A DNA stretch of 64,000 nucleotides. Source: an uncultured Candidatus Saccharibacteria bacterium. Its GTDB lineage: Bacteria; Patescibacteriota; Minisyncoccia; Phycocordibacterales; UBA9973. Both the position numbers and the translations under genes were made by a program. The stretch spans positions 64,277 through 128,276 of the forward strand of contig CAYXTA010000001.1 in assembly GCA_964468315.1 (NCBI GenBank), given 5' to 3'. Below, piece by piece: positions 9,117 to 44,775 of the stretch; the stretch's first letter is position 1, and each line of letters begins with the position of its first letter. The notes beneath the pieces were generated by a model. The model made no database searches, was not told the origin of the DNA, and saw only the letters and a program-made list of their open reading frames with translations.

Positions 9117-9155
9117 TTTATGATTATACCAAATAATTTGTGATATTATTAGTAT

Positions 9156-9719: not shown

Positions 9720-10060
9720 ACATGCAAACATATAATTTTTTATTTGTAATAGTTTTATCTACTGTTGTACTTACACGACTTTGGCTTTTATTGAAACCAA
9801 TATCTAGTCCTAGATTAAAAGGATTCAAGCTTCATCATTATATGTATGGTTTGATTATTGTTGGCATTTCTATTTTTCTTTCAAATATTATTTTATATGG
9901 AATTGGTTTTGGTTTAATAGTTGATGAATTACCACTTTTTTTAAGGTATAAAAATAATCATTTTCACTGGAAAGAATATAATTCAATTTATAGTAGATTG
10001 GGTGTTATTATTTGCCTTGTTTTGGTGTATATATTTAGAAAATATCTTATTTTATATTGA
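9716..10060 (+). CDS. Small membrane protein (3 TM).
   Basis: Translationally coupled to the isochorismatase-like gene. Hydrophobic. Confidence 0.4.
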   Translation: MNMQTYNFLFVIVLSTVVLTRLWLLLKPISSPRLKGFKLHHYMYGLIIVGISIFLSNIILYGIGFGLIVDELPLFLRYKNNHFHWKEYNSIYSRLGVIICLVLVYIFRKYLILY

Positions 10061-10101
10061 TTTGCTATAATTAAACCATTATTAATTTATAATAAAAATA
10101 T

Positions 10102-10608
10102 ATGACAATAGAAAATCCAATTGGAACGATAAAGAAGGCAGTACAAGCTTTTGCAGAACAAAAAGCAGAAAATGAATTTTTAGAAAAACCAGAAACTCGA
10201 CACTATGATGCTGTTTTTGAACAATTTCGAGCATTAAAAGAAGCTTCCCCTGAAGCACTTGAAACAGCTGTTAAGTTAGCTTCTAATTCTAAAGAAATAA
10301 AAGATGAATTAGGTTCAGAATTATTTATTCTTTATAAGAAAGTTGCAAATGAATTAGATGTAGAAATGAAAGATAAATGTATGATAGCTTTTAAACAATT
10401 AAAAGATGAAAATTTATCTAAAGATGATTTAGAAATAAAAGTAAAAGAATTATATATCAGAGTATCTAAACAAGTGGTAGATATGTTTAAAAATGATCCA
10501 CGCATTGTTTTGGCTTTTAATGGTAAAGAAGAACTTCTGGAAAAACTTTCAAAATTTATGGAAGAATCAGGAATTTCTTTAATAGATGCTATGTTTAAAT
10601 ATAAGTAA
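10102..10608 (+). CDS. Hypothetical helical protein.
   Basis: 168-aa ORF with a convergent terminator downstream. Confidence 0.45.
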   Translation: MTIENPIGTIKKAVQAFAEQKAENEFLEKPETRHYDAVFEQFRALKEASPEALETAVKLASNSKEIKDELGSELFILYKKVANELDVEMKDKCMIAFKQLKDENLSKDDLEIKVKELYIRVSKQVVDMFKNDPRIVLAFNGKEELLEKLSKFMEESGISLIDAMFKYK

Positions 10609-10792
10609 TTTAGATCAGCAGATTTTTAATATTTATTGGATCAATAATAATATTTAAATATAAAACAAAATTACTTCTGTTTTTTTTCTTGTATTGTTGC
10701 TGTCATTACTGACATGGCTTTCGTTTGGTGTTTGTATTTGTTTAGCATTTGTTGCTTTAATTTTGATTGGGTTGAAATAGATTATATATAAT

Positions 10793-10822
10793 TAAAAAAT
10801 CCCACAATGTGGGATTTTTTAA
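10793..10822. terminator. Bidirectional intrinsic terminator.
   Basis: AAAAAATCCCACAATGTGGGATTTTTT: a GC-containing hairpin flanked by an A-run and a T-run, between convergent genes. Confidence 0.6.
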
Positions 10823-10825
10823 TTA

Positions 10826-11185
10826 TTAAAGTAATTCTTTTAGTTCTTTGACTGCTTTTGAAGCATTGTTATATTTTGAAACTTCTCTATCATTTAAACC
10901 AGCTTCAATTATATCTAACTTGTCTTGAATTAATGATTTGAATTCTACATCACCAATACAATCTATTTGTTTTTTAATCGCCGAAAAGTAGTCATCCAAC
11001 ATACTATAATCATCTTTTATCATTGATTCGTATAAAGATTGTAGATTGACTGTTAGTTGTAATACACCAGACTTTTGCTCTGGTAGGATATGTTGTTTAA
11101 GAACTGTCGACAAATCTAATTTAGCCTTGTCTTCAATATCATGCTTTTCTTGTAAAGCTTTCATTCCATTTTCTATATTATTCAT
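10826..11185 (-). CDS. Hypothetical acidic helical protein.
   Basis: 119-aa ORF. Confidence 0.45.
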   Translation of the reverse strand: MNNIENGMKALQEKHDIEDKAKLDLSTVLKQHILPEQKSGVLQLTVNLQSLYESMIKDDYSMLDDYFSAIKKQIDCIGDVEFKSLIQDKLDIIEAGLNDREVSKYNNASKAVKELKELL

Positions 11186-11315
11186 TTATTTTCTTGTTAT
11201 TGTTTATAATCATTAGAGTTACCTCTAATTTACATATTATACTATAAATAAAAAATAGGGGAAAGTAAGCTTAGAAACTATATATTTGCCACATTTGGTA
11301 ATACTTCAAATGGCT

Positions 11316-11350
11316 CGAGCATTGACTTTTCACTTTTAATATGATATTAC
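11316..11350 (+). promoter_or_regulatory. Repeated promoter/operator-like box (copy 1 of 3): CATTGACTTTTCACTTTTAATATGATATTAC.
   Basis: Near-identical boxes at 12090-12125 and 13762-13797. TTGACT matches a sigma70 -35 hexamer, but the spacing to any -10 is ambiguous. Confidence 0.4.
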
Positions 11351-11385
11351 TTCATTAAGTAATCGCTCTTTTACATTCGTATTTG

Positions 11386-11426
11386 ATTGGTTTTCAGAGG
11401 AGATGCTGTCTCTTGTGGAAACCAAT
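11386..11426 (+). ncRNA. Conserved two-stem hairpin in the 5' leader (copy A) of the NADAR-HTH gene. A cis-regulatory RNA or an operator.
   Basis: ATTGGTTTTC CAGAGGAGATGCTGTCTCTTGTG GAAACCAAT. A 10-bp outer stem and a 6-bp inner stem. It ends 13 nt before the ATG and there is no SD. Confidence 0.5.
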
Positions 11427-11439
11427 TGAAACTAAAATA

Positions 11440-12012
11440 ATGGAAAATAAGAAAATTGACTCATTTAGCGAAGAGAATAGATTTCTCTCCAACTTCTGGC
11501 CCGTAGTCATTTGCTACGAGAATAGAATGTATCCAACAGTTGAACACGCGTATCAGGCTCAAAAGACAACTCAAGAGGAGAAACGACAAAAAGTTGCTGC
11601 TCTTATAACACCAGGCGAGGCTAAAAAATTTGGAGAAAATTTAAAGCGTCTTGGAAAAATACGTCCTGATTGGAGTGATGAATTGCGAATACAGCATATG
11701 ACAGCTTTGGTTGAAAGAAAGTTTTCTTTGAGTAATCTGGAATTGTCTCAAAAACTACTTGCAACTGGGGATATTGAACTTATTGAGGGTAATACCTGGG
11801 ACGATACCTTTTTCGGTGTTTGTAATGGGGAAGGAGAAAACCACTTGGGTAAAATCATTATGGCTACCAGAACAAAATTGAAGGCTGAAGTGCAAAAGAT
11901 AATGGATGCTTTAGTTAAGCATAATGGCAAGAGGCACGATGCTGCAAAGGATCTAAACATTGCGGAAAGGACACTGAGACTGCGCGAACAGGTATTTGGT
12001 ATTTTATATTGA
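11440..12012 (+). CDS. NADAR (YbiA/DUF1768) domain protein with a C-terminal Fis-type HTH.
   Basis: NADAR motifs: FLSNFWP, YPTVEHAYQAQK, LLATGDIELIEGNTWDDTFFGV. C-terminus: GKRHDAAKDLNIAERTLRLREQVFG, which resembles the Fis/NtrC HTH_8. I prefer the ATG at 11440 over the track start at 11383, which lies inside the hairpin. Confidence 0.7.
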   Translation: MENKKIDSFSEENRFLSNFWPVVICYENRMYPTVEHAYQAQKTTQEEKRQKVAALITPGEAKKFGENLKRLGKIRPDWSDELRIQHMTALVERKFSLSNLELSQKLLATGDIELIEGNTWDDTFFGVCNGEGENHLGKIIMATRTKLKAEVQKIMDALVKHNGKRHDAAKDLNIAERTLRLREQVFGILY

Positions 12013-12021
12013 GAAGCAATT

Positions 12022-12058
12022 AGGAGGTTAGAATATAATGTTCTAACCTCCTTTTTAT
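12022..12058 (+). terminator. Intrinsic terminator.
   Basis: Perfect 12-bp stem AGGAGGTTAGAA/TTCTAACCTCCT, followed by TTTTATTT. Confidence 0.6.
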
Positions 12059-12154
12059 TTACCCAAAATAACCATTCGAACATCTTCCCACGTTTAAAGT
12101 ATTGACTTTTAACTTTTAATATAGTACTTTAAGAAAAGTATTTGGTCTTTAACA

Positions 12155-12205
12155 TTGCATGTTTGATTGGTTACCAGAGAAGATTCTGTCTTTTGCGGTA
12201 ACCAA
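12155..12205 (+). ncRNA. Conserved two-stem hairpin (copy B) in the 5' leader of a membrane-protein gene.
   Basis: ATTGGTTACC AGAGAAGATTCTGTCTTTTGC GGTAACCAAT. The same architecture as copy A with compensatory substitutions. Confidence 0.5.
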
Positions 12206-12219
12206 TTAAAACTTAATAT

Positions 12220-12736
12220 TATGCTACAATTTGATTCACTTCTTCTAAAAAAATTCCAATCTTTTTCAGATTGGGTTTCAGTTACTTTTGGATTTAGTAA
12301 CTTCAAGGTTGCTAAATTGTTAATGATTTTATGTGTGATTGATACAGCCTGGGAGATTTATTTAAAAATCACCTACTGTAATATTGACCCAAAATCTTCT
12401 ATACCGGTGTTTAGTATCTTTTTTAGTTTACTATTCATTGTACTCTATGATTACACCATAAGGATTTGTGAGAAATTATCGGTTCTAAACTCAGGTACAA
12501 TCAATCCAGCTTACGTAATGTTACAACCTTGGCGATTCATGAAAATCGTTTTTATTTTCATGGGTATCACCCTATTAACAATAGATTTAACGGCGCATAT
12601 ATTTCTTACTCCATCTCCGTCTTTGAATCATGAGAAGGACCATATACATCACCTTACTGATATTTGTTACTTACTTTGGGATATATATAATCACAGCGTG
12701 TATTGTCTATTTAGTTTCTTGTTATACAAAACCTAA
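12220..12736 (+). CDS. Hypothetical membrane protein (about 4 TM).
   Basis: ATG at 12220, 14 nt after the hairpin. Hydrophobic segments. The track start at 12167 would overlap the structured element. Confidence 0.45.
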
Positions 12737-12842
12737 ACAGGAAAGTAAAATCAAGAAATGGATAAAAAGTATATCTTTTGTTTCCCAAGGTGTTTTGTCT
12801 CTTAAAGCACAAAAAATCTAACTTCTGAAGTCATAATCAATT

Positions 12843-12873
12843 AACCCACTCAATTTTGAGTGGGTTTTTTTAT
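12843..12873 (+). terminator. Intrinsic terminator.
   Basis: AACCCACTCAATTTTGAGTGGGTT followed by TTTTTTT. Confidence 0.6.
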
Positions 12874-12960
12874 TTACCCAAAATCACTATTCGAACATCA
12901 TCCCACGTTCGGAGCAAAATTTTATCATTTTTGAGTCTTTTCTGTTAAAATATATTTATT

Positions 12961-13740
12961 ATGCGAATCGAGAAAAAAGTTTGGCCGGAATATTTCCAAC
13001 AAATTGTAGATAATAAAAAGACCTTTGAATTAAGGTTAAATGATTTTGATATATGTGAGGGAGATACTCTTGTTCTTAATGAGTGGGATCCAGCTACCAA
13101 GGACTTCACAGGAAGAACACTTGAAAAAAAAGTAGGTTATGTTGGTAAGTGGAAAATAGATGATCTTACAAAGTTTTTACCAAGGCAAGACATTGAGGAT
13201 AAAGGCCTTCAAGTTATTTCTATGAAAGACCAAAAATCCCCAATGTCAAAACTAATAATAATCCGTGGAAACTCTGGCTCAGGAAAGAGCACTATCGCAA
13301 AAGAACTGAGAGCAAGATTAGGCAAAGAAAAAACCGCCCTCATTGAGCAGGATTATTTACGTCGCCACGTACTTGGAGAGATAGGCAAAAGTGGCGATGA
13401 TAATGTTGAATTGATAGAATTGACTACAAGATTTGCTTTAGAGAAAAACTATTTAACTATAGTTGATGGCATAATGCCGTCAGAATATTATGGTGCTATG
13501 TTAAAAAGGCTGAATGATATAAATCCTAAAAATACACATATTTTTTACTTAGATATATCCTTAGAAGAAACACTTAAAAGACATACTACCAAACCAAATC
13601 GTAATGATTTTGGTGAACCAGAAATACGAGAATGGTACAGAAATAAAGATACATTAAAACTAGAAAACGAGACTGTAATTGACGAGAAATCAACTTTAGA
13701 AGAAAGTATAAAATTTATATTGGAGGTTATTAAATATTAG
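12961..13740 (+). CDS. Fusion protein: an N-terminal ASCH/PUA-like domain and a C-terminal P-loop kinase (AAA_33/zeta-like).
   Basis: N-terminus KKTFELRLNDFDICEGDTLVLNEWDP...GRTLEKKVGYV (small beta-barrel ASCH/DUF3850-like). C-terminus Walker A IIIRGNSGSGKSTIAKEL and Walker B-like YLTIVDG. Confidence 0.55.
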   Translation: MRIEKKVWPEYFQQIVDNKKTFELRLNDFDICEGDTLVLNEWDPATKDFTGRTLEKKVGYVGKWKIDDLTKFLPRQDIEDKGLQVISMKDQKSPMSKLIIIRGNSGSGKSTIAKELRARLGKEKTALIEQDYLRRHVLGEIGKSGDDNVELIELTTRFALEKNYLTIVDGIMPSEYYGAMLKRLNDINPKNTHIFYLDISLEETLKRHTTKPNRNDFGEPEIREWYRNKDTLKLENETVIDEKSTLEESIKFILEVIKY

Positions 13741-13913
13741 GGAATACTTCAAATAGCTCGAGCATTGACTTTTATATTTTAATATAGTACTTTAAGAAAA
13801 GTATTCGGTCTTTAACATCCTTTGTTTACCTATTGAATTACTCACTTTGCTTTTCAATTTTGGAAGTCAATGTGGGTAATTCAATAATCTATAAACTTTA
13901 AATAATAAAAAAA

Positions 13914-14387
13914 ATGACAAAAGTTGTAAAACTCTTCGGACTTGATGATCCAAGTGTAGATAATAATATTAAAATAATTGCTTTAACAGGAAAATGTATC
14001 GAATGGGCGATGGGTTTTCTGGGAGGGGATGATGATCCACTTACAGGTCTTATTATAGGAGATAAAGATTTCGATGACACGATTCTTCAAAAATTAAACA
14101 TATTTGAGACTGAGGAAGAAAAAATTAAAACAATCCTTCAAGATTTAAATAAACCGGATTCTGAATTTGAAGGAAAACTTATGAGCCTGGGTGAACTTAG
14201 TGGAAGAGAAGAGGATACCCATATTGAGATAATTGCTCTAGCAGCAAAAAATCTGGAATGGGAAATTGGTGTTCTCGCAGGAGAAGATGAACCAATCACA
14301 GGACTTATCCTCGGAGAAAAGGAATTTGTTAAAGCAACTCTTCGAAAATTGAATAAATTTGATTTGCTTTTTAAGGAGCAGAAATAA
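13914..14387 (+). CDS. Hypothetical protein made of two tandem homologous ~65-aa repeats.
   Basis: IKIIALTGKCIEWAMGFLGGDDDPLTGLIIGDKDFDDTILQKLN is repeated as IEIIALAAKNLEWEIGVLAGEDEPITGLILGEKEFVKATLRKLN. Confidence 0.45.
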   Translation: MTKVVKLFGLDDPSVDNNIKIIALTGKCIEWAMGFLGGDDDPLTGLIIGDKDFDDTILQKLNIFETEEEKIKTILQDLNKPDSEFEGKLMSLGELSGREEDTHIEIIALAAKNLEWEIGVLAGEDEPITGLILGEKEFVKATLRKLNKFDLLFKEQK

Positions 14388-14410
14388 GTATAAACCATAA
14401 AAATAAAACA

Positions 14411-14716
14411 ATGTTAGACCTTTCAAAAAAAGAAGAGAAAACTCTTCGAGAAATAACAGAAAAATACGATGCTAAGTTCGAATTATCTTTAGACGAAGAT
14501 GGCAAAAACTTTTTATGTAAGATTGTGGCAGGGGATGGCCAATCTTTTCATTATAAAGATAAAACAAAGAAAAGTAATGGAGTCCTAATGAAAGCAATAA
14601 AATCTCTTAACCCAGAAGAAGCTATGAAAAAAGCAATTGAATTCTTTTCAACCGTTGAGTATTTTACTTGGAACCTTTATGAACCTAATTGTGTAGATAT
14701 GCATGATGATTGTTAA
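14411..14716 (+). CDS. Small hypothetical protein.
   Basis: 101-aa ORF with a terminator immediately downstream. Confidence 0.4.
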   Translation: MLDLSKKEEKTLREITEKYDAKFELSLDEDGKNFLCKIVAGDGQSFHYKDKTKKSNGVLMKAIKSLNPEEAMKKAIEFFSTVEYFTWNLYEPNCVDMHDDC

Positions 14717-14734
14717 TTAATTGATTTTTTATAC

Positions 14735-14768
14735 AAAAAACCGTTTCGTAAAGATACGGTTTTTTTTA
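14735..14768. terminator. Bidirectional intrinsic terminator.
   Basis: AAAAAACCGTTTCGTAAAGATACGGTTTTTTTT between convergent genes. Confidence 0.55.
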
Positions 14769-14847
14769 TTTTCCATCTAAAATGTCCCGTATCAGAGGTT
14801 TCCTAAAATATAAAAACGCACTGATATAATCAATGCGTTTTTGTTTT

Positions 14848-15450
14848 TTAAATTATCTCAACTTTCAAATTATTTAAAACAAAGGCTTCGTTTCGAAAAC
14901 AGACCATCCAGCGGTTATCCTTGTTGTAATACCTTACAAATTTTATCATATTAACATCTGTTATATATAAATTTGTAGGTATACAAAAATTCATGTATTC
15001 AACGAAATCTTCTTCAATTTCAGAAACAACTTTTGTTTTACATGTTCCCAAGATAGGAATAATCAAATTATGTTCTGTAACACACGAGTCGGGACCTTTG
15101 CAGGTAAAAGAAATTTTTAAGCTTTTACCTTTGAAAATAGCAGACTCTTCAATTTTGTTCAGTATAAAATACCAAGTACCAGAACGGTCGTCTTGTGAGC
15201 AGTACCATTTAGCTAACCACCCAGCTTGTCTGTATTTCCTGAGAACTTCATTTACTACTCTTTCATCGAGGCCCGATGAGATTCCTCCTTGCTTGTTACT
15301 ATAAGGGAAAGGTTTAGGCTCAACTTTTAGTTCTTTACCTTTAACATAGTATTTTACTATGTAATTGTCGATTTGTTTTTCATAAAGAGCGATCATACTC
15401 TTTTGATTATCGGTGAAAGTTTCATCAATGGATCCTGTTTTAATGGCCAT
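14848..15450 (-). CDS. Hypothetical Cys-containing protein.
   Basis: 200-aa ORF. The antisense ORF 14993..15304 is judged spurious. Confidence 0.45.
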   Translation of the reverse strand: MAIKTGSIDETFTDNQKSMIALYEKQIDNYIVKYYVKGKELKVEPKPFPYSNKQGGISSGLDERVVNEVLRKYRQAGWLAKWYCSQDDRSGTWYFILNKIEESAIFKGKSLKISFTCKGPDSCVTEHNLIIPILGTCKTKVVSEIEEDFVEYMNFCIPTNLYITDVNMIKFVRYYNKDNRWMVCFRNEAFVLNNLKVEII

Positions 15451-15709
15451 AGTTTCTATAGATTTAAGGGTTTATATTTATTTTTTTTAAAAGGACTTTA
15501 GTTATACGCAATATATCATATTATTATAAATATGTCAAATATACCTCATCTTTATATAGAAATTTTGTTTACCAAAAACGCTATTCCAATATTCTTCTTT
15601 GGTTAAAGTATTATTGACTATTATTTATTTTTGTGTTAAATTAAAACTAAATTTGTTTGGGCGTCTTGCCCGTTAAATAACTTAATTTAACCTTTAAAAA
15701 CTACATATC

Positions 15710-16180
15710 ATGGCAAGTATACTAATTCTTGAAGAGCTTGAACAAGCTTTACAGCTCTGGGAAGACACTAATCTTTGGGCAGAAGCAAAATTCCAATTAT
15801 TCCTACAGGGTAAAATTGAGGAAGATGAAAATTATGGTAAACCGCTCATTGGTACAGAAATCGATGATGCTGGATTCTTACAAAGAGGGATTAAAAATTT
15901 TAACTCTCTTCGTAGTGCTTTGAATAATCATATTGAGCTTGATCCAACTCAATTTCTTCCGAGGGTCACGACTGAAAAAAGACCGACACACACAACTCTA
16001 GATTTCTCTCGTATGTTTGTTGTGCGAGGGATCACTTTTTCCCCATTTTTTCTTTCGAAATGGATGAATTACAAAAAGGTGTTCAGTGTAAAAACCCCAG
16101 ACATTATTCAGCCTGTTTCTATTCTTGAAAAGAATTATCTGAGCAAAGTGCCTTACAGTTCTTTTATTATTAGGTTTTAA
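15710..16180 (+). CDS. Hypothetical protein with locally higher GC.
   Basis: 156-aa ORF whose codon usage is visibly GC-richer than its neighbours. Confidence 0.4.
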   Translation: MASILILEELEQALQLWEDTNLWAEAKFQLFLQGKIEEDENYGKPLIGTEIDDAGFLQRGIKNFNSLRSALNNHIELDPTQFLPRVTTEKRPTHTTLDFSRMFVVRGITFSPFFLSKWMNYKKVFSVKTPDIIQPVSILEKNYLSKVPYSSFIIRF

Positions 16181-16198
16181 GAACCTTTAAAGATTGAT

Positions 16199-17011
16199 TT
16201 GATAGAGGATAAAAATGCTGATCATGTGCATCAAATCGAGGAAAAGTTAGTTATGGTTACTACTGATGGTGTCTATATGGATATTTTCTGTTTAGGGCCA
16301 TCAAAAAGTATAACTGATTTTTCCTTAACATCACAGGTAAGGCATGATTTGGTAGAAAATCTTTCTAAAAAAAGCCAGACCCAAAAGTTTGTAAATCAGG
16401 TAAATTCTGTTAACTTAGGGTTACCTTTTGTCAGTTTAACGATTGAAGTTACTTCGGGCTTGTCAGTAGTTCAAAAATATAATGAAGGTGATGATACTTT
16501 TGTTACAACTTTTGACTCTAACAGAAATCCTGGAATCTTTGATTCTAAAATTAATGGAAAAACTGAACAGTCGCAAGCATATGTACCCGGTGACTATCCT
16601 CATGCGATGTCTGAAATACTCCATCTTCACCGATTTTTTATCGATCTGGTAAATGGTTTTTGCAAAGTGGTTTCTGAATTACCAGCAAGACAAACGGTTA
16701 TTACTGAAAGTCCTGCTTCGCTGCCTGAAACTTTAAGGCAGGGAAAACAAGAAACTAAATCCTGGTTTTCAGTCGAAATTACTGATGTCAGAGATGTGAG
16801 TGGTGAAGAAAATCCCAGTGTTCATTTTGCTTCACATACAGGTGGTGAAAAATCAGCTCATTGGAGAAGGGGACACTGGAGAATTTACATGAACAAAGAT
16901 GGGTCTTTCAAAAAAGAAGTATGGATTTCAGAGGCACTGATTCGGGAAGACAAACTGGAAACTGAAAACCTTCAAGGTAGCGCTACACTGCTAAAAAGTG
17001 AAAAAAGTTGA
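16199..17011 (+). CDS. Hypothetical protein with locally higher GC; TTG start per the ORF track.
   Basis: 270-aa ORF followed by a strong terminator. Confidence 0.4.
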   Translation: MIEDKNADHVHQIEEKLVMVTTDGVYMDIFCLGPSKSITDFSLTSQVRHDLVENLSKKSQTQKFVNQVNSVNLGLPFVSLTIEVTSGLSVVQKYNEGDDTFVTTFDSNRNPGIFDSKINGKTEQSQAYVPGDYPHAMSEILHLHRFFIDLVNGFCKVVSELPARQTVITESPASLPETLRQGKQETKSWFSVEITDVRDVSGEENPSVHFASHTGGEKSAHWRRGHWRIYMNKDGSFKKEVWISEALIREDKLETENLQGSATLLKSEKS

Positions 17012-17053
17012 CATGATTTTGCTAAATACTAAATTACCCAGAGCAATCTGGTA

Positions 17054-17080
17054 CCCCGATCTAACAAGATCGGGGTTTTT
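17054..17080 (+). terminator. Intrinsic terminator.
   Basis: CCCCGATCTAACAAGATCGGGG followed by TTTTT. Confidence 0.65.
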
Positions 17081-17173
17081 ATTTACCAAAAATCGTAATT
17101 TTAACATAATCCTACGTTTGAAGTCTTTAAAATATACCTTAATAGAAGTTCAAACTTGTGATATTATTGGTGT

Positions 17174-17655
17174 ATGAAAAAGTCATTAACTTTGTGTATG
17201 ATTCTTAAAGATAACCAGATACTCCTAGGTATGAAAAAAAGAGGATTTGGTGTTGGTAGATGGAATGGGTTTGGTGGAAAAGTTGATGAAGGTGAAACAA
17301 TAGAACAAGGAGCTATTCGTGAATTAAAAGAGGAGACTGGAATAGATGCTGTAAATATTAAAAAAGTTGGTATTTTGGATTTTTCATTTCAAAATGATAA
17401 TAAAATTTTAGAAGTTAATGTTTTTAAAGTTATAGATTTTATAGGAGAACCTACAGAAAGTGAAGAGATGAAACCACAATGGTTTTTTTTGATAAAATAC
17501 CATTTAGTCAAATGTGGACAGATGATATTCAATGGTTTCCATTTCTATTAAATAATAAATTATTTAGAGGAGAATTTTTATTTGATAGACCTTCTGATTC
17601 TGAATATTCTGCAAAAATAATTACTCAAAAACTAAATGAAGTTTCAAATTTTTAA
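17174..17655 (+). pseudogene. MutT/NUDT1(MTH1)-like Nudix hydrolase interrupted by a frameshift in a T8 homopolymer (17483-17490).
   Basis: Nudix box GGKVDEGETIEQGAIRELKEETGI in frame 1 ending at 17551. The adjacent frame continues DKIPFSQMWTDDIQWFPFLLNNKLFRGEFLF...QKLNEVSNF to 17655. From memory this matches the MTH1 C-terminus ([27 protein letters not shown]). Confidence 0.55.
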
Positions 17656-17691
17656 TATTTCCATTCGAATATTTCCCTAAGTTTTTCTGTC

Positions 17692-18273
17692 TTGATAGAA
17701 TTTCAAATTTTCTGTTATACTTATTTTATGGAAGGTCATTTTAATACAGAAAAAAATAAATCTGAACAATTAGAAATAATAAGAAAAGAGGTTGAAAAAA
17801 TTGTCGATAAACTCGGATTAGGAATCGATCAGGATATAAAAGAAACAGTGGCTATTTTTCGTGCAATGGATTTTCCAACTTCATCATCATGTTCTGGTCA
17901 TACTAACGATATGGGTGATGAAGGGTACGGATTGCCATATGTTGAAGTATACGCTCCTGCTCCCAAAGGATGGATTGAAGATAAAACGAATAAAGAATTA
18001 AGAGAAAAATGGAAACAAGAAAACGTTAAATATAGAAAAAAAATTATACCTCTTTTAGAGGATTTTAATAAAAAAAGAACTTCCGCGAATGACGTTCTTT
18101 TACACATAAGCGATATAGGTTCTTTTAGTGCTTTTAGAATTGAGAGTATTGGGGTAGAGGAGACAAGAAAATTAAAGTCTGAAGAAGAGTTGGTAATTAA
18201 AATAAAACAATTTCAAGAAGAAATGAAGTTTTTTACAGAGTTTTTGAAAGATAAATTCTTAAAAGGAAAATAG
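17692..18273 (+). CDS. Hypothetical protein.
   Basis: 193-aa ORF. The real start may be the Met at about 17725 (MEGHFNTEK). Confidence 0.45.
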   Translation: MIEFQIFCYTYFMEGHFNTEKNKSEQLEIIRKEVEKIVDKLGLGIDQDIKETVAIFRAMDFPTSSSCSGHTNDMGDEGYGLPYVEVYAPAPKGWIEDKTNKELREKWKQENVKYRKKIIPLLEDFNKKRTSANDVLLHISDIGSFSAFRIESIGVEETRKLKSEEELVIKIKQFQEEMKFFTEFLKDKFLKGK

Positions 18274-18316
18274 AATGAACGCTGTTATTTTTATATGATA
18301 AAATACAATATAATAT

Positions 18317-18748
18317 ATGGAAAGATTTAAATTAAATGTAGCTGTTTACTTGTTATTAATAAAAGGTGATAAAATACTTCTTTTGCGAAGATTTAATACT
18401 GGTTGGCAAGATGGAAATTACAGTCTTCCTGCTGGACATTTAGAAATGGGTGAAACTCCGACTTCTGGAATGATGCGAGAAGGTTTAGAGGAAATAGGAA
18501 TTACGTTACACAAAGAAGATTTAGAAATGGTACATACTATGCATAGAATACATGGATATTATATTGATTTATTTTTTACTGCTAAAAAATGGGAAGGAGA
18601 GATCGTAAATAAAGAATTAAATAAATGTGATGATCTAAATTGGTTTCCACTTGAAGATTTACCAATAAATATAGTACCTTCAGTAAAATCTGCCATTGAA
18701 CAATATAAAAAAGGTGTTCATTTTTCAGAGTTTGAAATGGAGGGGTAA
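18317..18748 (+). CDS. Nudix hydrolase.
   Basis: Nudix box GHLEMGETPTSGMMREGLEEIGI (Gx5Ex7REuxEExGu). Confidence 0.75.
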   Translation: MERFKLNVAVYLLLIKGDKILLLRRFNTGWQDGNYSLPAGHLEMGETPTSGMMREGLEEIGITLHKEDLEMVHTMHRIHGYYIDLFFTAKKWEGEIVNKELNKCDDLNWFPLEDLPINIVPSVKSAIEQYKKGVHFSEFEMEG

Positions 18749-18964
18749 TATATGCACATAGAATTCTTGCATTAGAAATATTAATGCAATATACTTTTAG
18801 TGGCGAATATATATATGGAATCAGCCCTAAGGGGACTATACTCTGCAAAAACAATAATTTTTCATTAACCGCTTAAGGTTAATACAACAATAATAAAAGA
18901 CAAAATCTACGGAAGTCAATGAAAGCAGAGCAAAAAGAATATTAGCGAATAAACACGCTTTTTA

Positions 18965-19012
18965 GGCTTTTTGCTCAGTTTGAAGTTAAGACTTCTTCTC
19001 GAGCAAAAAGCC
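18965..19012. repeat. Perfect 12-bp inverted repeat GGCTTTTTGCTC...GAGCAAAAAGCC with a 24-nt loop.
   Basis: Seen directly in the sequence. It lies at the left edge of the phage-like module, about 100 bp upstream of the ParB-MTase gene. It is not followed by a T-run. Confidence 0.5.
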
Positions 19013-19114
19013 AAGTACAAACTTGGTTTTCTTGTTGTATGGGCAACTTTTAAACAAAATATTCTTTCAACAAAATCTCCCAAAATTATTAAGTAATAAA
19101 TAAGGAATTTTAGT

Positions 19115-20398
19115 ATGAATAAAAATACTCAATTAATTTGGCGTACAGAAGTACGTAAAGTAGAAAGTCTTAAAACATGGAGTAAAAATCCTCGTAAATT
19201 AACAAAATCAGCATTTAAAACCTTAGTGGAAAGGATTGAGCAACGCGGTTTTCACGCAGTACTTGTAATTGATACAGATGACACGATTCTTTCAGGTAAT
19301 CAGAGAAAAAATGCACTTATACATTTAGGAATTACTGAAGTAACAGTGTTGGTTCCAAACCGTAAACTTACAGAAGATGAAAGAAAAAAGATTGCTTTAG
19401 AATCTAATTTAAATGATGGGGAATGGGATTTTTCAAAATTAAAATCTTTTAACATGGATCTGCTGAGTGATATAGGTTTCCCTGATTCAGATCTTTCAAA
19501 TATCTGGTCGGAAAATCTTGAAGCTGAAGATGATAACTTTGATGAAAAACTTGAACTGTCAAAAATTAAAGTTCCAAAAACTAAACTTGGAGATCTAATT
19601 ATTATGGGAAATCATAGATTAATTTGTGGAGATTCAACGGATCCTAAAGTTCTTAAAAAGTTATTCGGAAACGAGAAAGCATCTATGATATATTCTGATC
19701 CGATTTACAATATTAAAATAAATTATAGTAAAGGGATTGGAGGTAAACAAAAATATGGTGGAAATGTAAATGACAATCGTAGCTTTGAAGAATACAAAGA
19801 ATTTCTAAATAAAAGTTTAATTAGTGCACTTGCTGTATCAAAAGATGACCTTCATGTTTTTTACTGGAATGATCAGACAGGGATAGGAATTGTACAAGAT
19901 TTATATCGTGAACTTGGTATTGAAAACAAGCGAGTATGTTTGTGGATTAAAAATGGACAGAATCCTGTGCCGAGTGTGGCGTTTAATAAATGCTATGAAC
20001 CATGCATATATGGTGTAAAAGGACGACCATATATTTCTTCAAATTTACAAAACCTCAATGAGGTCATGAATAAAGAAATGACAACTGGTAATAGTCTTAT
20101 GGAAGAAACACTTGATCATCTTGATATTTGGACAGTGAAAAGATTGTCAGGTAAAGATTACGAACATGCTACAAGTAAACCTCCAAAACTTCACGAAAAA
20201 GCTATTCGTCGTTGCACTAAGCCTGGTGATATTATTCTAGATTCATTTTCAGGTTCTTCCAGCACACTTATTAGTGCTGAACAATTAAAACGTCGAGTAT
20301 ATGCTGTCGAGCTAGAAGAAGTATTTTGTGATTTGGCGATTCGCAGGTACGAAAAATTAACAGGTAATAAAGCAAAAATAATCCATGAAAAAAAATAA
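19115..20398 (+). CDS. ParB-like nuclease domain fused to a DNA N6-adenine/N4-cytosine methyltransferase (phage/plasmid type).
   Basis: N-terminal ParB/Srx-like region (GFHAVLVIDTDDTILSGNQRKNA). MTase motif IV SDPIYNI (DPPY-like) lies before motif I ILDSFSGSSST, the beta-class order. Confidence 0.7.
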   Translation: MNKNTQLIWRTEVRKVESLKTWSKNPRKLTKSAFKTLVERIEQRGFHAVLVIDTDDTILSGNQRKNALIHLGITEVTVLVPNRKLTEDERKKIALESNLNDGEWDFSKLKSFNMDLLSDIGFPDSDLSNIWSENLEAEDDNFDEKLELSKIKVPKTKLGDLIIMGNHRLICGDSTDPKVLKKLFGNEKASMIYSDPIYNIKINYSKGIGGKQKYGGNVNDNRSFEEYKEFLNKSLISALAVSKDDLHVFYWNDQTGIGIVQDLYRELGIENKRVCLWIKNGQNPVPSVAFNKCYEPCIYGVKGRPYISSNLQNLNEVMNKEMTTGNSLMEETLDHLDIWTVKRLSGKDYEHATSKPPKLHEKAIRRCTKPGDIILDSFSGSSSTLISAEQLKRRVYAVELEEVFCDLAIRRYEKLTGNKAKIIHEKK

Positions 20399-20792
20399 AA
20401 AGAAAGATGAGTTTTTAGAACAACTCAAAAAAGTTCCAATTGTTTTAGTTGCATGTGAAAAATCTGCACTCTCTCGCAATACTGTATATCGATGGCGAAA
20501 GGAAGATAATGAATTTTCTGTTGCAATGGATCAAGCCCTTAAAGAGGGCGAAGAATTAGTAAATGATATGACTGAAAGTCAGCTCTTAAGTATGATCAAA
20601 GATAAAGAATGGTCAGCTATTTCTTTTTGGCTTCGACATAGGAATCCAAAGTTTAGAGACAAGGTTGAACTCGTCGGAAATATTAACCATACCACTCGTG
20701 AATTAACTTCTGAAGACGAAGAACTACTTAAGGAAAGTCTTCGTCTTGCATTACCAACTAATCATAAACAAAATGATGAACCTAAATCCTAA
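20385..20792 (+). CDS. Putative terminase small subunit / HTH DNA-binding protein.
   Basis: HTH-like ALSRNTVYRWRKEDNEFSVAMDQALKEG. It sits immediately upstream of the terminase large subunit gene and overlaps it. Confidence 0.45.
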   Translation: MKKNKKKDEFLEQLKKVPIVLVACEKSALSRNTVYRWRKEDNEFSVAMDQALKEGEELVNDMTESQLLSMIKDKEWSAISFWLRHRNPKFRDKVELVGNINHTTRELTSEDEELLKESLRLALPTNHKQNDEPKS

Positions 20793-22230
20793 AGAAGAAG
20801 AGATTATCAAACATATGATTAAAGATCGTACCTTTCGATTAGCATTAGTTAAAAAAAGTCACTATTGGTTTTTCTATTATTACTTCGGACAAAAATATGC
20901 AAAGTATCCAACAGCAGATTTTCAACGTGAAATATTTAATATCACAGAAAATCCTGAATTAAAAAATATTGTAATCACAGCATTTCGTGGATCAGCTAAA
21001 TCTACGATTATTACCTTGTCTTATGTGATTTGGTCGATAGTCGGAATTAAACAAAAAAAGTTTCCAATAATTCTTGGTCGAACACAATTAAACACGCAAC
21101 CAAATCTTAATGCTATTAAGAAAGAATTAGAAGAAAACGATTTATTCAGAAAAGATTTTGGTCCATTTAAGGAAGAGGTTGATACTAATGGAACCACACA
21201 ATCTATTATTCTTCCTCAATACAATGCTCAGATATCAACACGTTCAATAGGGCAAAATATTAGAGGTATTAAACATTTGCAATACAGACCGGATTTAATT
21301 ATCGCTGACGACATAGAGGACTCTGATTCAATAAAAAGTCAGAAAAATAGAGATGAGTTATTTGATTGGCTAACTGGTGATGTCATTCCAGCAGGAGATC
21401 GTGATACTCAATTAATATTCATTGGTACACCACTTCATAATGATTCAATTCTAATGCGTTTAAAAGCATTATTTCAAAATGGAGATCCTAAAAATATTTA
21501 CCGTGAATTCCCAATTGTAGATGAAAATAATATTCCTTTATGGCTTGGAAAATTTAAGACACAAGAAGACATCGATAATGAGAGAAAAAAGTGTTTTAGT
21601 GAAATTATGTGGCAACGAGAGTATTTACTCAAGATTTTAGATAGTGAAGATCAAATAATTAAGCGAGAACATATTCATTATTACGAAGAATTACTAACTG
21701 GACATTGTCGTTTTTCTGCTACCGCTATTGATCCAGCACGTTCTCTTAAATCAACTGCTGATTATACTGCTATTGTTTCAGGAAAAATGTTTGAATATGA
21801 AAAGAATAGGAAATTATATATTATGCCTAATCCAATAAATGAACGTCTTACTACAGACCAACAAATACAAAAAGTAAAAAATATTTCGAAAGGATTAAAT
21901 AATAACGAAAGTTATTCCCGTGTATATGTTGAAGATGTTGGATTTCAAGGAGTCATTACTGATTTGTTAAAAAGTGAAGGAATTCCCGCAAAACCATTTC
22001 CTGTCCGAGGTTGGAGCAAAGAAGATCGTCTTATGTCCGTATCTTCACTTATTGAACTTGGGAGAGTGGTCTTTCCAAAGAAAGGAGCTGAAAAATTACT
22101 TGAACAAATTATTGGATTTGGGAAAGAATCACATGATGATCTGGTCGATGCTTGTACAATGTTAATATTTCAAGCTTTTGAAGATTCTAAAAAACCAAGA
22201 CCAAGAATTCAGAATATTTTTATTTATTAA
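20773..22230 (+). CDS. Phage terminase large subunit.
   Basis: Walker A-like FRGSAKSTIIT. Walker B/DE LIIADDIED. C-terminal RNaseH-like nuclease region (IDPARSLKSTADYTAIVSG...VEDVGFQG...HDDLVDA). The ATG at 20773 is preferred over the track start at 20746. Confidence 0.7.
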   Translation: MMNLNPKEEEIIKHMIKDRTFRLALVKKSHYWFFYYYFGQKYAKYPTADFQREIFNITENPELKNIVITAFRGSAKSTIITLSYVIWSIVGIKQKKFPIILGRTQLNTQPNLNAIKKELEENDLFRKDFGPFKEEVDTNGTTQSIILPQYNAQISTRSIGQNIRGIKHLQYRPDLIIADDIEDSDSIKSQKNRDELFDWLTGDVIPAGDRDTQLIFIGTPLHNDSILMRLKALFQNGDPKNIYREFPIVDENNIPLWLGKFKTQEDIDNERKKCFSEIMWQREYLLKILDSEDQIIKREHIHYYEELLTGHCRFSATAIDPARSLKSTADYTAIVSGKMFEYEKNRKLYIMPNPINERLTTDQQIQKVKNISKGLNNNESYSRVYVEDVGFQGVITDLLKSEGIPAKPFPVRGWSKEDRLMSVSSLIELGRVVFPKKGAEKLLEQIIGFGKESHDDLVDACTMLIFQAFEDSKKPRPRIQNIFIY

Positions 22231-22240
22231 TTAACAAATA

Positions 22241-22272
22241 AAAAAGACCTGTAGTTTATACAGATCTTTTTT
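22241..22272. terminator. Bidirectional terminator.
   Basis: AAAAAAGACCTGTAGTTTATACAGATCTTTTTT between convergent genes. Confidence 0.5.
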
Positions 22273-22289
22273 AAGTGCCAATTTAATTA

Positions 22290-22841
22290 TTAGTCTAGAT
22301 CTACTACTATTATTCCTCCTCCAAATAAACTTCCATTGTATTGGAATTGGAGACCTTTTGTGTTATTAGGTATTTCAAATCCAACCCAACCCGTACGCTT
22401 ACTATTTGCAATAACAGCACCATCAAGAGATTTGTTCATATTCTCTATAATTTTATCAGTAACACTTATTTGATAACTATTACCATCTGCGTCTCGTAAA
22501 AACATTTGTCCTAATGTTGTTATATATTGTTGTGTTGATCCGGTATTTTGAATAGTTATATTTAAATTAATATATTTATTACCAGTTGAAGGTTTTGCAA
22601 ATTCTGAACCTTGTGAAAATGAAACATTATTTACTGTGACTATTGAATCACCAAGTTGTATTTTATCTCCAACTTTGTAGGTTTGATTTTGTGATTGGAC
22701 TGTTGTTGTATCAGTGGTATTATTACTTCCAACTTTTTTAGGAGTAGAACTACCAGAACTAGCTATTATTAAAATAATAATTATCACAAGAATCCAAAAC
22801 CAAACTTTTTTATAAAATTTCTTTTTAGGAGTATTCTCCAT
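22290..22841 (-). CDS. Secreted/lipoprotein-like DUF4352-type beta-sandwich protein.
   Basis: N-terminal TM/signal. Ser/Thr-rich linker. A beta-rich domain (GDKIQLGDSIVTVNNVSF...YINLNITIQNTG...WVGFEIP) typical of the DUF4352 family, which is often next to phage genes. Confidence 0.5.
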   Translation of the reverse strand: MENTPKKKFYKKVWFWILVIIIILIIASSGSSTPKKVGSNNTTDTTTVQSQNQTYKVGDKIQLGDSIVTVNNVSFSQGSEFAKPSTGNKYINLNITIQNTGSTQQYITTLGQMFLRDADGNSYQISVTDKIIENMNKSLDGAVIANSKRTGWVGFEIPNNTKGLQFQYNGSLFGGGIIVVDLD

Positions 22842-22891
22842 AATATTTTCTTTTGCGTTTTATTATTTATAAATTCATGAAAATGAGACAC

Positions 22892-22982
22892 AAAAAGCTC
22901 ATCACATGAGTGAGGGTTTAAACCCTCCATATCCGTTTCCAGATACGGCCGTTGAAGACAAACCTCACATGATGAGCTTTTT
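22892..22982. repeat. 91-bp palindromic element with 13-bp terminal inverted repeats AAAAAGCTCATCA / TGATGAGCTTTTT and a nested perfect 16-bp palindrome GAGGGTTTAAACCCTC (22913-22928).
   Basis: Seen directly. It also contains a small CCGT...ACGG hairpin, and lies in the intergenic region upstream of the minus-strand DUF4352 gene. Confidence 0.55.
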
Positions 22983-23259
22983 ATCTTCAACGGACTTTTT
23001 ACCATGCCTTTATTGCTAAAGGTTTAGGCTACTTGTATTTAGTTGTAAATGAATAATACCATTCTCGACCATATTATTCAACGCCTCATTGTATCGCAAA
23101 CTCTTGAAATCACAGAGGATAGTTACCAACATATAAGACTATTCTTTAACATATCTTTTATACATTTACAAAATACCCATATCTTATATAATATGATTAA
23201 GTAAGTATGTCCTTATGGCTGTGTTCGACAGACTCGTTCATTAAAAAACATATAGAAAG

Positions 23260-23916
23260 ATGATAACTGAAAAGATTACATCAGACCAAGAGAAACAATT
23301 AACACGTTTCCTTGAAGACGCTATGCGTAAACTTGACCTATCAAAAGAGCAGGCTCAGGAAATTATTAAAAACGGTGGCAAAATGCAAGCCGAAGTGCGA
23401 GATGTATTGAATAAGTACTCAATAGCAGACAAACGCTTTACATGTGTAAACACCTTTGAAATTGTTGTACCTGCTAACTACAAGCATGAAACACGTTTGG
23501 ATTCATTTTTTAAAGAAAACAAGAAAAAGTTTTATTACTACAATAATGCTATTACTGACAAAAATTTTGCTAAAGCTACAACAAAATTGGAGCCAGGTAG
23601 AAAGTTTAAAGTGAAAGTATTCCAAATCAACAACATAATAACATTAACAGATTGTACAGATTTTTTAAAAAGTCAAAACGCAGTTTTAACTGGTGCCCAA
23701 GGAGCTTCGCTTGTTTACGAACAAAAGAAAGAGGAGTTAGTAAAAGGTAAATGGGCTATTTCTTTTGACGAAAAAGATTCGTTATGGAAAGATTCTAATG
23801 GTTACTTCAGGGTGCCTTATGTGTTCGCTCGCACAGATGGAGACTTCGAGTTCCTCCTTAGTCACTTTGGGATTGCCTGGGTTGAAGGTCGCTGTCTCTT
23901 GTGCTTCTGTGACTAA
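23260..23916 (+). CDS. Hypothetical protein.
   Basis: 218-aa ORF followed by a perfect 32-bp palindromic terminator. Confidence 0.45.
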   Translation: MITEKITSDQEKQLTRFLEDAMRKLDLSKEQAQEIIKNGGKMQAEVRDVLNKYSIADKRFTCVNTFEIVVPANYKHETRLDSFFKENKKKFYYYNNAITDKNFAKATTKLEPGRKFKVKVFQINNIITLTDCTDFLKSQNAVLTGAQGASLVYEQKKEELVKGKWAISFDEKDSLWKDSNGYFRVPYVFARTDGDFEFLLSHFGIAWVEGRCLLCFCD

Positions 23917-23971
23917 AAGTCCTTTGGCACTTTGTATCTTAAATCATCTTTTGCCTTTAATTCTTAAATTT

Positions 23972-24009
23972 GTCCCATTTACTTTATATAAAGTAAATGG
24001 GACTTTTTT
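23972..24009 (+). terminator. Intrinsic terminator built on a perfect 32-bp palindrome.
   Basis: GTCCCATTTACTTTATATAAAGTAAATGGGAC followed by TTTTTT. Confidence 0.7.
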
Positions 24010-24090
24010 GTTTTAATCTAACAAAAGTTACCAACACGTTACCAACGATCAAGCCTTAGCAAAAGGCTTTTTCTCTGTCATTAATTAGAT

Positions 24091-25434
24091 ATGGAGAAGA
24101 ATGCAATAGGGAAGATACACAATTCAATATCTGTATCAGAAGTTCGGATCAAGTACTGCCTATACGCCAGAAAATCGACAGAGCAAGATGAGAAACAAGC
24201 GCTATCAATAGATTCACAGGTAAAAGAAATGCTTCAAATTGCGGAGCGTGAAAATCTTAATGTCGTTGAAGTAAAAAGAGAATCGCATTCAGCAAAAGAT
24301 TCAGGAGAACGGCCAGTCTTTAAGGAAATATTGGAAGATCTACGATCAGAGAAATTCAATGGATTGCTCACATGGGCGCCGGACCGATTAAGTAGAAATG
24401 CAGGTGATCTTGGCTCGCTGGTAGATCTTATGGATCAGAAGAAATTAATCCATATACAAACGTATGGACAGACATTCAAGAATTCACCGAATGAAAAATT
24501 TCTCTTGATGATCTTGTGTTCTCAGGCAAAACTAGAGAATGACAATAAAAGTATTAATGTTAAAAGGGGATTACGGGCAAGAGTAGAGATGGGGTTATGG
24601 CCATGCCGTCCACCAACAGGATACTTCAAAGAGAAAAGAACAGATAGAAAATGTCAGTCAATATTCGATCCAGATCGAGCGCCGATCATAAAGCAGATAT
24701 TTGAAAAAGTAGGATATGATGGCTGGAGCGGAAGAAAGATATATCACTGGCTCAAGCATGAGATTAAATTCAAGACTGAATTTAATATGTTTCTGAGTTT
24801 GGGTAATCTCTATCGCATACTCGAAAATTCTTTCTATTACGGACGCTTTGAATTTCCGAAAGGATCAGGGAACTGGTACAACGGAGTGCATGAACCGATA
24901 ATCTCTAAAGAATTGTTTAATATCGTCCAAACACAGATCAAGAGCCAGATCTTAGAACCACGGTCACAGCAGAAAGAATTTGCCTTTACCAAGATCATGG
25001 CATGCGGATTATGTGGATCAGGAATAACGGCTGATGAAAAGTTCAAGAGATTAAAGAATGGCGGTGTGAATCGCCATGTCTATTACAAATGTACTAGGAT
25101 TAGAGATTCAAAATGTGAGTGCGGATTTATAAATGAAGAAGACCTGATTAAGCAATTACAGATTCTCATTGATGATCTTGAAATGCAGACGGTGCCAATG
25201 AGAGAGAAGATATCGGCTGAAGTGCAGCGATTCAAGAAATTCGAACAGATGCTCTTAGGTACAAAGACACCTATTACTGTAAAAGATATAGATATACGAA
25301 ACTATGCAAAGTTTATATTGCTAGAGGGGACCGTGGATGAGAAGAGGGAATTCTTGAGGTGTTTGAGGAGTGGGATTGTGTTGGAGAATAAGAAAATATC
25401 ACTTATTAAGCCTTCTCAATATATTTTGAAATAA
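24091..25434 (+). CDS. Large serine recombinase (serine integrase).
   Basis: N-terminal resolvase catalytic motif YARKSTEQDEKQALSIDSQ (Ser nucleophile). Recombinase domain. Zn-ribbon Cys cluster (CGLCGSG...YYKCTR...C). C-terminal coiled coil. Confidence 0.8.
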   Translation: MEKNAIGKIHNSISVSEVRIKYCLYARKSTEQDEKQALSIDSQVKEMLQIAERENLNVVEVKRESHSAKDSGERPVFKEILEDLRSEKFNGLLTWAPDRLSRNAGDLGSLVDLMDQKKLIHIQTYGQTFKNSPNEKFLLMILCSQAKLENDNKSINVKRGLRARVEMGLWPCRPPTGYFKEKRTDRKCQSIFDPDRAPIIKQIFEKVGYDGWSGRKIYHWLKHEIKFKTEFNMFLSLGNLYRILENSFYYGRFEFPKGSGNWYNGVHEPIISKELFNIVQTQIKSQILEPRSQQKEFAFTKIMACGLCGSGITADEKFKRLKNGGVNRHVYYKCTRIRDSKCECGFINEEDLIKQLQILIDDLEMQTVPMREKISAEVQRFKKFEQMLLGTKTPITVKDIDIRNYAKFILLEGTVDEKREFLRCLRSGIVLENKKISLIKPSQYILK

Positions 25435-29374: not shown

Positions 29375-29449
29375 TGGTGACTCTACAGGGAATCGAACCC
29401 TGATTTGATCCTTGAGAAGGACCCGTCCTAACCGTTAGACGATAGAGCC
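29375..29449 (-). tRNA. tRNA-Glu (anticodon CUC). CCA is encoded.
   Basis: Hand-folded cloverleaf of the reverse complement: GGCTCTA/TAGAGTC acceptor with one G.U, D arm GTCT..GGAC, anticodon stem GGTCC/GGATC with loop TTCTCAA, T arm CAGGG TTCGATT CCCTG, then ACCA. Confidence 0.7.
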
Positions 29450-44774: not shown

Positions 44775-44775
44775 C

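Follow-up and report, generated by a model that had tools for sequence, protein, structure and literature searches.

Probable recent inactivation of an island-borne MTH1-like Nudix gene by a single-nucleotide frameshift in a Patescibacteria chromosome

In the human 8-oxo-dGTP diphosphatase MTH1 (NUDT1), residues Asn33, Trp117, Asp119 and Asp120 recognise the base, and W117, D119, D120 and W123 form the oxidised-base pocket together with the C-terminal helix. Phase variation classically switches through homopolymeric tracts within coding regions, and homopolymers are also the classic sites of sequencing error. During transcription, single-base insertions cluster in A/T runs, with an exponential increase as the run lengthens, and a genome-wide survey in Buchnera found no transcription error that restored the frame of a pseudogene (PMC5574713). 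E. coli RNA polymerase rescued approximately 5-10% of T7/T8 frameshift reporters, with about 10% at T8 (PMC6260861), and the productive, well-established transcriptional slippage sites of bacteria use runs of nine A/T with high efficiency (PMC5009743).

Here, we analysed an MTH1-like gene that is divided at a run of eight thymines (T8). It lies in a 64,000-nucleotide stretch of DNA, referred to throughout as the window, with a GC content of 31.8%. Among the genes of the window are those for GatB, subunits of an F-type ATP synthase, an FAD oxidase and two tRNAs; identity of this GatB with those of Candidatus Paceibacterota/Nomurabacteria MAGs does not exceed 80%. On this gene content and GatB, the window belongs to the chromosome of an uncultured CPR (Patescibacteria) bacterium of the Paceibacteria/Nomurabacteria type. 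We consider it probable that the gene, a cassette copy of an MTH1/NUDT1-like Nudix gene, carries a recent, real and inactivating frameshift. Coordinates of the features are collected in Table 1.

Table 1. Features of the MTH1-like locus, the surrounding island and the adjacent chromosome (window coordinates unless a contig is named).
Feature	Position	Strand	Remarks
Frame-0 ORF, MTH1-like Nudix gene	17174..17551	+	125 aa; ORF reading
T8 run, lesion site	17483..17490	+	exactly 8 T
-1-frame continuation	17491..17655	+	codes residues 106-160 of the ancestral protein (DKIPFSQMWTDDIQWFP...)
Upstream neighbour, 433 aa	15710..17011	+	weak AcrVA2-like Pfam match; CAA>TAA at 16178
Intrinsic-terminator-like hairpin with T tail	17053..17076	+	ends the upstream gene; consensus scan only
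Promoter-like sites	17082-17110, 17139-17167	+	consensus scan only
Intergenic 43-nt repeat (family D1), upstream copy	17076..17118	+	77%; repeat comparison
Intergenic 43-nt repeat, downstream diverged copy	17641..17683	+	63%; repeat comparison
Further copies of the ~43-nt repeat (TTTTTATTTACCCAAAATAACCATTCGAACATCTTCCCACGTT)	12052-12094, 12867-12909; L001 ~5485-5515; L105 ~10234-10270
Second Nudix gene, intact, MutT-like	18317..18748	+	NUDIX + NUDIX_4; 660 nt downstream
Island, approximate extent	~9000-25434
Isochorismatase	9156-9719
NADAR-domain protein	11383-12012
DUF3850-kinase fusion	12961-13740
ParB-domain N6/N4 DNA methyltransferase	19115-20398
TerS	20385-20792
TerL	20746-22230
Superinfection-exclusion (Sie)-like protein	22290-22841	-
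Large serine recombinase	24091-25434
tRNA-Glu(CTC)	29375-29449	-	~4 kb beyond the serine recombinase
tRNA-Ile(GAT)	44703-44775

An MTH1-type protein encoded in two frames

The frame-0 ORF contains a canonical Nudix box, G35-x5-E41-x7-R49-E50-L-K-E53-E54-T-G56-I57, bearing out the claim of the initial annotation that the box is intact in the frame terminating at 17551. The product comprises 104 native residues, followed by an out-of-frame tail (FLIKYHLVKCGQMIFNGFHFY) and the stop codon. Past the T8 run, the continuation in the -1 frame is still free of stops, and a second ORF in this frame (equivalently +2) extends from an ATG at 17479 to 17655, encoding 58 residues (MVFFDKIPFSQMWTDDIQWFPFLLNNKLF... 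/ MVFFDKIPFSQMWTDDIQWFPFLLNNKLFRGEFLF...). The sequence quoted earlier for this frame is found as given up to 17655, with the correction that TGGTTTTTTTT (TGG) starts at 17480 and not at 17481. A further in-frame ATG for the second fragment occurs at 17512, from which gene callers predicted a 47-aa ORF. By translation, nine T at the run give a single ORF of 160 aa and six give one of 159 aa, as had been proposed; seven or eight T give no single ORF. Positions 17485-17491 read T TTT TTG in phase with the frame starting at 17174, a nominal X_XXY_YYZ slippery heptamer.

Both the T9-repaired protein and the 125-aa ORF match PF00293 above its gathering score (E=4.8e-15 and E=2.7e-14, respectively), which together with the box places the gene in the Nudix hydrolase superfamily; the generic NUDIX domain is the only Pfam match to the MTH1-like protein. 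Searched against the PDB, the repaired protein matches MTH1/NUDT1 chains from zebrafish, other vertebrates (mouse/dog-type) and human at E=5e-50 to 5e-46, in alignments that run without a gap across the frameshift junction, and the best match to a Nudix protein other than MTH1 is at E=2e-9. It is 54% identical to zebrafish MTH1 without gaps (54-55% to vertebrate MTH1 over ~135 residues) and 55% identical to human MTH1, the human sequence used agreeing with the PDB match table. The 58-aa second-frame peptide by itself matches MTH1 residues 108-143 (E=1.4e-9 for zebrafish and 4.6e-7 for human), a likeness that, judged from these alignments, is far beyond chance. The resemblance to the C-terminal region of MTH1, pointed out in the initial annotation, is therefore real, given the matches of both the repaired protein and the lone peptide to PDB chains. 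Full-length similarity of the MTH1/NUDT1 type is found for the repaired 160-aa reading only.

An assignment as the E. coli MutT equivalog was ruled out: the NCBIfam models TIGR00586 and NF008044 score 43.9 and 47.3 bits, far under their cut-offs of 97.9 and 148, and the gene is thus MTH1-type, not MutT-type. Human residues N33, W117, D119 and D120 correspond to N31, W115, D117 and D118 of the repaired protein (an offset of +2). The 125-aa frame-0 product keeps the equivalents of human N33, E52, E55, E56 and E100; those of W117, D119, D120 and W123 are coded only in the -1 frame past the T8 run and are missing from it. The base-recognition set Asn33/Trp117/Asp119/Asp120 is, in consequence, incomplete in the product of standard decoding. 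On these sequence features, we predict that the gene encoded an 8-oxo-dGTP / 2-OH-dATP diphosphatase of the MTH1/NUDT1-like type.

Ancestral state, distribution and age of the lesion

A search at E<=1e-10 gives 4911 homologues of the repaired protein. Of these, the best 120 are all 151-212 aa long with a single Nudix domain and come mostly from Patescibacteria, several being named 8-oxo-dGTP diphosphatase by their source; with none shorter than 151 aa among these best 120, orthologues that naturally end at the first stop, a condition under which the initial annotation would have been refuted, do not appear. All six homologues whose sequences were inspected are uninterrupted through the site equivalent to the lesion, and the three closest proteins (92-95% amino acid identity) are intact, reading ...PQWFSFDKIPF.... 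The nearest intact relatives, represented by three proteins from nine contigs (L001-L007, L013 and L014) and by one metagenome contig (L015), are 92-93.5% identical in nucleotide sequence. At the lesion, they all read CAATGGTTTTCTTTTGAC (also written TGGTTTTCTTTTGA or TTTTCTTTT; Phe-Ser-Phe), and the window reads CAATGGTTTTTTTTGAT, that is, CAATGGTTTT-TTTTGAT. The site TTTTCTTTT of the nearest relatives is not a homopolymer, and its serine is also kept in more distant CPR homologues (WFSF). By exact-pattern scan, no allele of the lesion site was present in IMG/VR viral contigs or GTDB genome representatives, and in metagenomes the same scan returned one further TTTTCTTTT-type contig only, the L015 contig just mentioned.

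Given TTTTCTTTT in the intact relatives, the T8 run is best explained by one C having been lost from between two runs of T4. A path in two steps, in which TCT became TTT and the resulting T9 then shortened to T8, is less parsimonious than a direct deletion of the C. Shortening of an ancestral T9 run is disfavoured as an origin, as the intact relatives carry TTTTCTTTT and not a run of T. Nine T as the 'correct' state, as first suggested, is likewise probably wrong; judged from the nearest relatives, the ancestral state was the Ser codon TCT.

In the mechanism that we propose, the ancestral codons would have been TGG TTT TCT TTT GAY (W-F-S-F-D), and loss of the C would have joined the T4 runs on either side of it as T8, with a -1 shift of the frame. 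Decoded conventionally, the gene would then yield a 125-aa product that has the Nudix catalytic box and lacks the C-terminal third, and with it the base-recognition residues (human W117, D119, D120 and W123) and the final helix of the fold. Judged by homology to solved MTH1 structures, this product is most likely inactive. By analogy with the ~10% rescue at T8 in E. coli (PMC6260861), 'inactive' may here amount to strongly down-expressed.

The truncated ORF (125 aa, or a shorter call of 117 aa) and the T8 run are present in eight other public assemblies (Logan SRR25018341, SRR25018342, ERR4405440, SRR11088444, SRR35185575 and ERR15657118; NCBI GCA_020050275.1; JGI 3300043411), which are 99.95-100% identical to the window across 1.1-7.2 kb. 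Counting the window, T8 stands in nine of nine consensus sequences, without variation in tract length between assemblies, and the carriers of the frameshift show zero substitutions between them within the gene. The T8 allele occurs on both haplotypes of a C/T SNP at 16178, in the upstream neighbour, so the frameshift is older than this SNP. Every assembly with the frameshift is at least 99.95% identical to the window, and all relatives examined are single ORFs. The lesion is thus of the lineage-specific kind that defines a pseudogene, namely a 1-nt deletion relative to the TTTTCTTTT of all near relatives, confined to one clone.

Downstream of the shift, comparison with the two nearest relatives gives 1-2 nonsynonymous and 4-6 synonymous changes, a dN/dS of 0.05-0.07 that bears the signature of purifying selection; upstream of it, dN/dS is 0.09-0.12. 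The undegraded state of the downstream frame indicates that, set against a synonymous divergence of ~0.15-0.3, the lesion arose recently. The same state is also expected under continued selection on a product made by slippage; ongoing selection on the downstream frame is less likely than recency as its explanation. Of the possibilities raised by the initial annotation, recent inactivation is the one that gains support, from the intact relatives, the recovery of T8 in several datasets, the restriction to one lineage, the undegraded downstream frame and the decaying, accessory surroundings described below.

A cassette in a mobile island

DNA identity between the window and the contigs of the nearest relatives is confined to 17135-17684. 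In their flanks, the intact relatives show no relationship to the window in either DNA or protein, and a protein-level comparison of the relatives' neighbour genes with the window found no shared synteny. With homology limited to this segment and the flanks unrelated, the gene appears to have moved as a cassette. No second MTH1-like copy was found in the 64-kb window by protein comparison. With a terminator-like hairpin behind the upstream gene, the MTH1-like gene would be transcribed from a promoter of its own within 17080-17170.

Homology to the relatives stops at 17684, by the downstream copy of the intergenic repeat. The repeat core trails the intact gene in the relatives and the 433-aa gene in a sister island, its diverged copies being weak. 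Since the relatives' homology ends at repeats, cassettes may be exchanged through recombination at a terminator/promoter module that they have in common. As a separate observation, the ~43-nt repeat is sometimes followed by a shared promoter-like segment containing TTGACT, and it bounds several cassettes in this island and in related contigs.

The sister island, on contig L105 (SRR12901027), was found through the 433-aa neighbour; it is 88% identical over window positions 13760-17032 and holds a different, 222-aa gene in the slot of the MTH1-like gene. No sister island with an intact MTH1-like gene in the same slot was found, and homologues of the 181-aa downstream neighbour lie in unrelated contexts. 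In the 433-aa gene itself, position 16178 gives TAA, a nonsense codon, in the window and in ERR4405440 (L009) and CAA, leaving the gene intact, in five assemblies (L008, L010, L011, L016 and L017); it is the sole difference between the window and its sister assemblies. This gene is therefore a segregating knockout lying beside the frameshifted one.

The second, intact Nudix gene downstream is a possible functional back-up, conferring redundancy. In L021 (positions 2705-3137; ENA ERZ27272751), an otherwise unrelated island that also has the 181-aa neighbour gene, two frameshifts, neither of which is at a long homopolymer, break the homologue of this second Nudix gene into three ORFs. There, the split gene lies amid PRK-like kinase, HAD, NTPase_I-T (ITPase-like) and GrpB genes, which are parted by a conserved intergenic repeat of that island's own. 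Accessory Nudix cassettes in such islands are evidently gained, swapped and lost.

The island combines terminase, Sie-like and serine recombinase genes (Table 1) with no portal or capsid gene detected between terminase and recombinase, and so looks like a degenerate prophage remnant or a satellite-like element. A megablast search of 16000-20500 against 50,697 phage records gave no match; in protein scans of viral contigs, the MTH1-like protein had just two distant Nudix matches and the 181-aa neighbour had none. We also observed in the island a set of nucleotide-'housecleaning' or modification genes, comprising the isochorismatase, the NADAR protein, the DUF3850-kinase fusion and the two Nudix genes.

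Alternative explanations and comparison with known systems

The best-surviving alternative, which we nonetheless regard as improbable, is functional recoding, in which the full-length protein is still made through -1 ribosomal frameshifting on U_UUU_UUG or through insertion of a U by RNA polymerase and is under selection, the run acting as an attenuator or 'savior indel'. The codons TTT TTG preceded by T do form the nominal heptamer, and the two routes would give WFFLDKIPF (-1 slip) and WFFFDKIPF (U insertion), both in proteins of 160 aa, the length inferred for the ancestor. The undegraded downstream frame, the exponential growth of polymerase insertions with the length of A/T runs (PMC5574713) and the 5-10% rescue of T7/T8 reporters by the E. 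coli enzyme (PMC6260861) also speak for it. Against this, the 60 nt past the run (17491-17550) fold at -7.8 kcal/mol, like shuffled sequences (z=+0.24), with z=-1.4 for a 100-nt window. No stimulatory hairpin or pseudoknot was found downstream of T8, the folds being no better than those of shuffles and wider windows unremarkable, and a -1 frameshift stimulator was ruled out on these grounds. The flanking sequence is the same as in the intact relatives, which, with the unstimulating fold, argues that nothing has evolved to stimulate shifting.

The run is of eight T; characterised bacterial slippage sites have at least nine A/T, the established productive ones having nine (PMC5009743), and rescue at T8 by the E. 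coli enzyme was ~10% (PMC6260861). The survey in Buchnera saw no rescue of pseudogene frames by transcription errors (PMC5574713), and the neighbouring gene is decaying as well. Moreover, the frameshift occurs in one near-clonal lineage, the other homologues examined all being single ORFs. By analogy with the reporters, slippage on T8 may return a few per cent of transcripts or ribosomes to frame without being programmed; nothing indicates that leakiness at this level is selected. The narrower version, in which T8 is a selected expression attenuator and ~5-10% of transcripts gain a U (or ribosomes slip by -1) to provide a low, tolerated dose of enzyme, seems to us slightly less probable still. 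If true, it would account for the perfectly kept downstream frame and for the spread of the allele through many environments, and would constitute a CPR example of a 'savior indel'. Taking programmed frameshifting, transcriptional slippage and phase variation together, as the initial annotation did in proposing a slippery site, we find them jointly unsupported and unlikely: the frameshift belongs to a single near-clonal lineage with single-ORF homologues, no stimulator and no length polymorphism.

It is very unlikely that the T8 run is a sequencing or assembly error, the true sequence being T9 or TTTTCTTTT, both in frame, and a base having been lost from a stretch of low complexity. Runs of this kind are where such errors are expected, and the evidence here consists of consensus assemblies. 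The same T8 was, however, recovered from at least six separate sequencing runs and through several assemblers or sources (Logan, JGI and NCBI), and an exact look-up in ~15 billion proteins returned no in-frame version of the allele (T9, T6 or TCT); these two results make an assembly error unlikely. A dropped C between T runs is, besides, atypical of a miscalled homopolymer length. The error first offered as one explanation is thus not supported, as T8 was reassembled in eight other datasets, no in-frame allele was found and the site is not a homopolymer in the nearest relatives. The window holds 27 A/T runs of at least eight, and the other 26 lack a split-gene signature, so that a general unreliability of the assembly at homopolymers was also rejected. 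When A/T runs of at least seven were scanned, only this T8 was found to split a gene, and five other flagged sites proved to be ordinary gene junctions.

The contigs of three independent assemblies break within the last ~75 nt of the gene (L016 and L017, both at 17644, and L018 at 17580). These breaks are consistent with branching of the assembly graph at k-mers common to the island copy and a co-occurring intact homologue, and an intact copy, from the same or a related genome, may coexist in these three samples.

As improbable as a sequencing error is a functional Nudix enzyme in the form of the truncated 125-aa protein, or of two separately made fragments that re-associate, the second starting at ATG 17479 or 17512. 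In its favour, the 125-aa product has kept both its Nudix box and its metal-binding glutamates, in-frame ATGs exist, and the 47-aa ORF was called from the second of them. The first fragment, on the other hand, is without W117, D119, D120 and the C-terminal helix, inspection of the sequence reveals no clear ribosome-binding site before either internal ATG, and not one of the best 120 of the 4911 homologues is naturally split or shorter than 151 aa. Least probable of all is phase variation at the DNA level, with the tract as a contingency locus switched ON (T9/T6) and OFF (T8/T7) by replication slippage, since, for all that a T8 run inside an ORF resembles the classical coding-homopolymer switch, nine of nine consensus sequences are T8 on two haplotypes with no ON allele on record, the tract is not ancestral and was made by the lesion, and A/T runs of eight are common here (27 in 64 kb at 32% GC) and otherwise in frame.

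With recent inactivation as the probable reading, the appropriate annotation is an MTH1-like 8-oxo-dGTP diphosphatase pseudogene with a frameshift, instead of two hypothetical ORFs, and the run should not be 'corrected' to T9. Beyond its correct annotation, the locus is of little import, as it adds one more ordinary pseudogene, broken by a frameshift, to a known enzyme family. It does illustrate cleanly how independent public assemblies can separate a real lesion from a homopolymer artefact, and how an apparent slippery run can be made by a lesion and need not be a pre-existing signal. Of wider interest than the frameshift are the existence of a large CPR family ~55% identical to vertebrate MTH1 and the travel of nucleotide-'housecleaning' genes as cassettes in CPR mobile islands. 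The Patescibacteria MTH1-like family is far nearer to vertebrate MTH1/NUDT1 than to any bacterial MutT in the PDB, which, at the level of sequence, points to inter-domain transfer or to unusual conservation; we found no open-access paper linking MTH1 and Patescibacteria.

Compared with programmed -1 frameshifting as in E. coli dnaX (A_AAA_AAG), the locus shares a nominal heptamer, U_UUU_UUG, in the correct phase, but it has neither the downstream stimulatory structure nor an evolved upstream element nor conservation. It resembles the A/T-run frameshifts with partial slippage rescue in Buchnera and Blochmannia, and tssM of Citrobacter rodentium, in that an indel in a coding run, within an AT-rich reduced genome, could be restored to frame by a 1-base insertion (PMC5009743). 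Those productive cases differ in having longer runs (9-11 or more), some of them conserved between species, whereas the present run is of eight, was made by a lesion and is confined to one clone, with rescue only hypothetical.

With vertebrate MTH1/NUDT1 (PDB 1IRY and 5OTN), the repaired protein shares the same Nudix box, equivalents of N33, F72, F74, W117, D119, D120 and W123 and a similar length (160 aa, compared with 156 aa); unlike its vertebrate counterparts, the gene is bacterial (CPR), island-borne and split by a -1 frameshift. The closest comparison is with the Patescibacteria '8-oxo-dGTP diphosphatase' family (for example P0001-P0003, and P0012 of Candidatus Nomurabacteria), with thousands of homologues of ~160 aa that reach at most 93-95% amino acid identity. 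Its members differ from the present gene in being unbroken single ORFs whose codon at the lesion site is TCT (Ser) and in lying in unrelated chromosomal contexts, such as beside an M1 peptidase. By sequence, this family is clearly the source from which the MTH1-like gene of the island derives.
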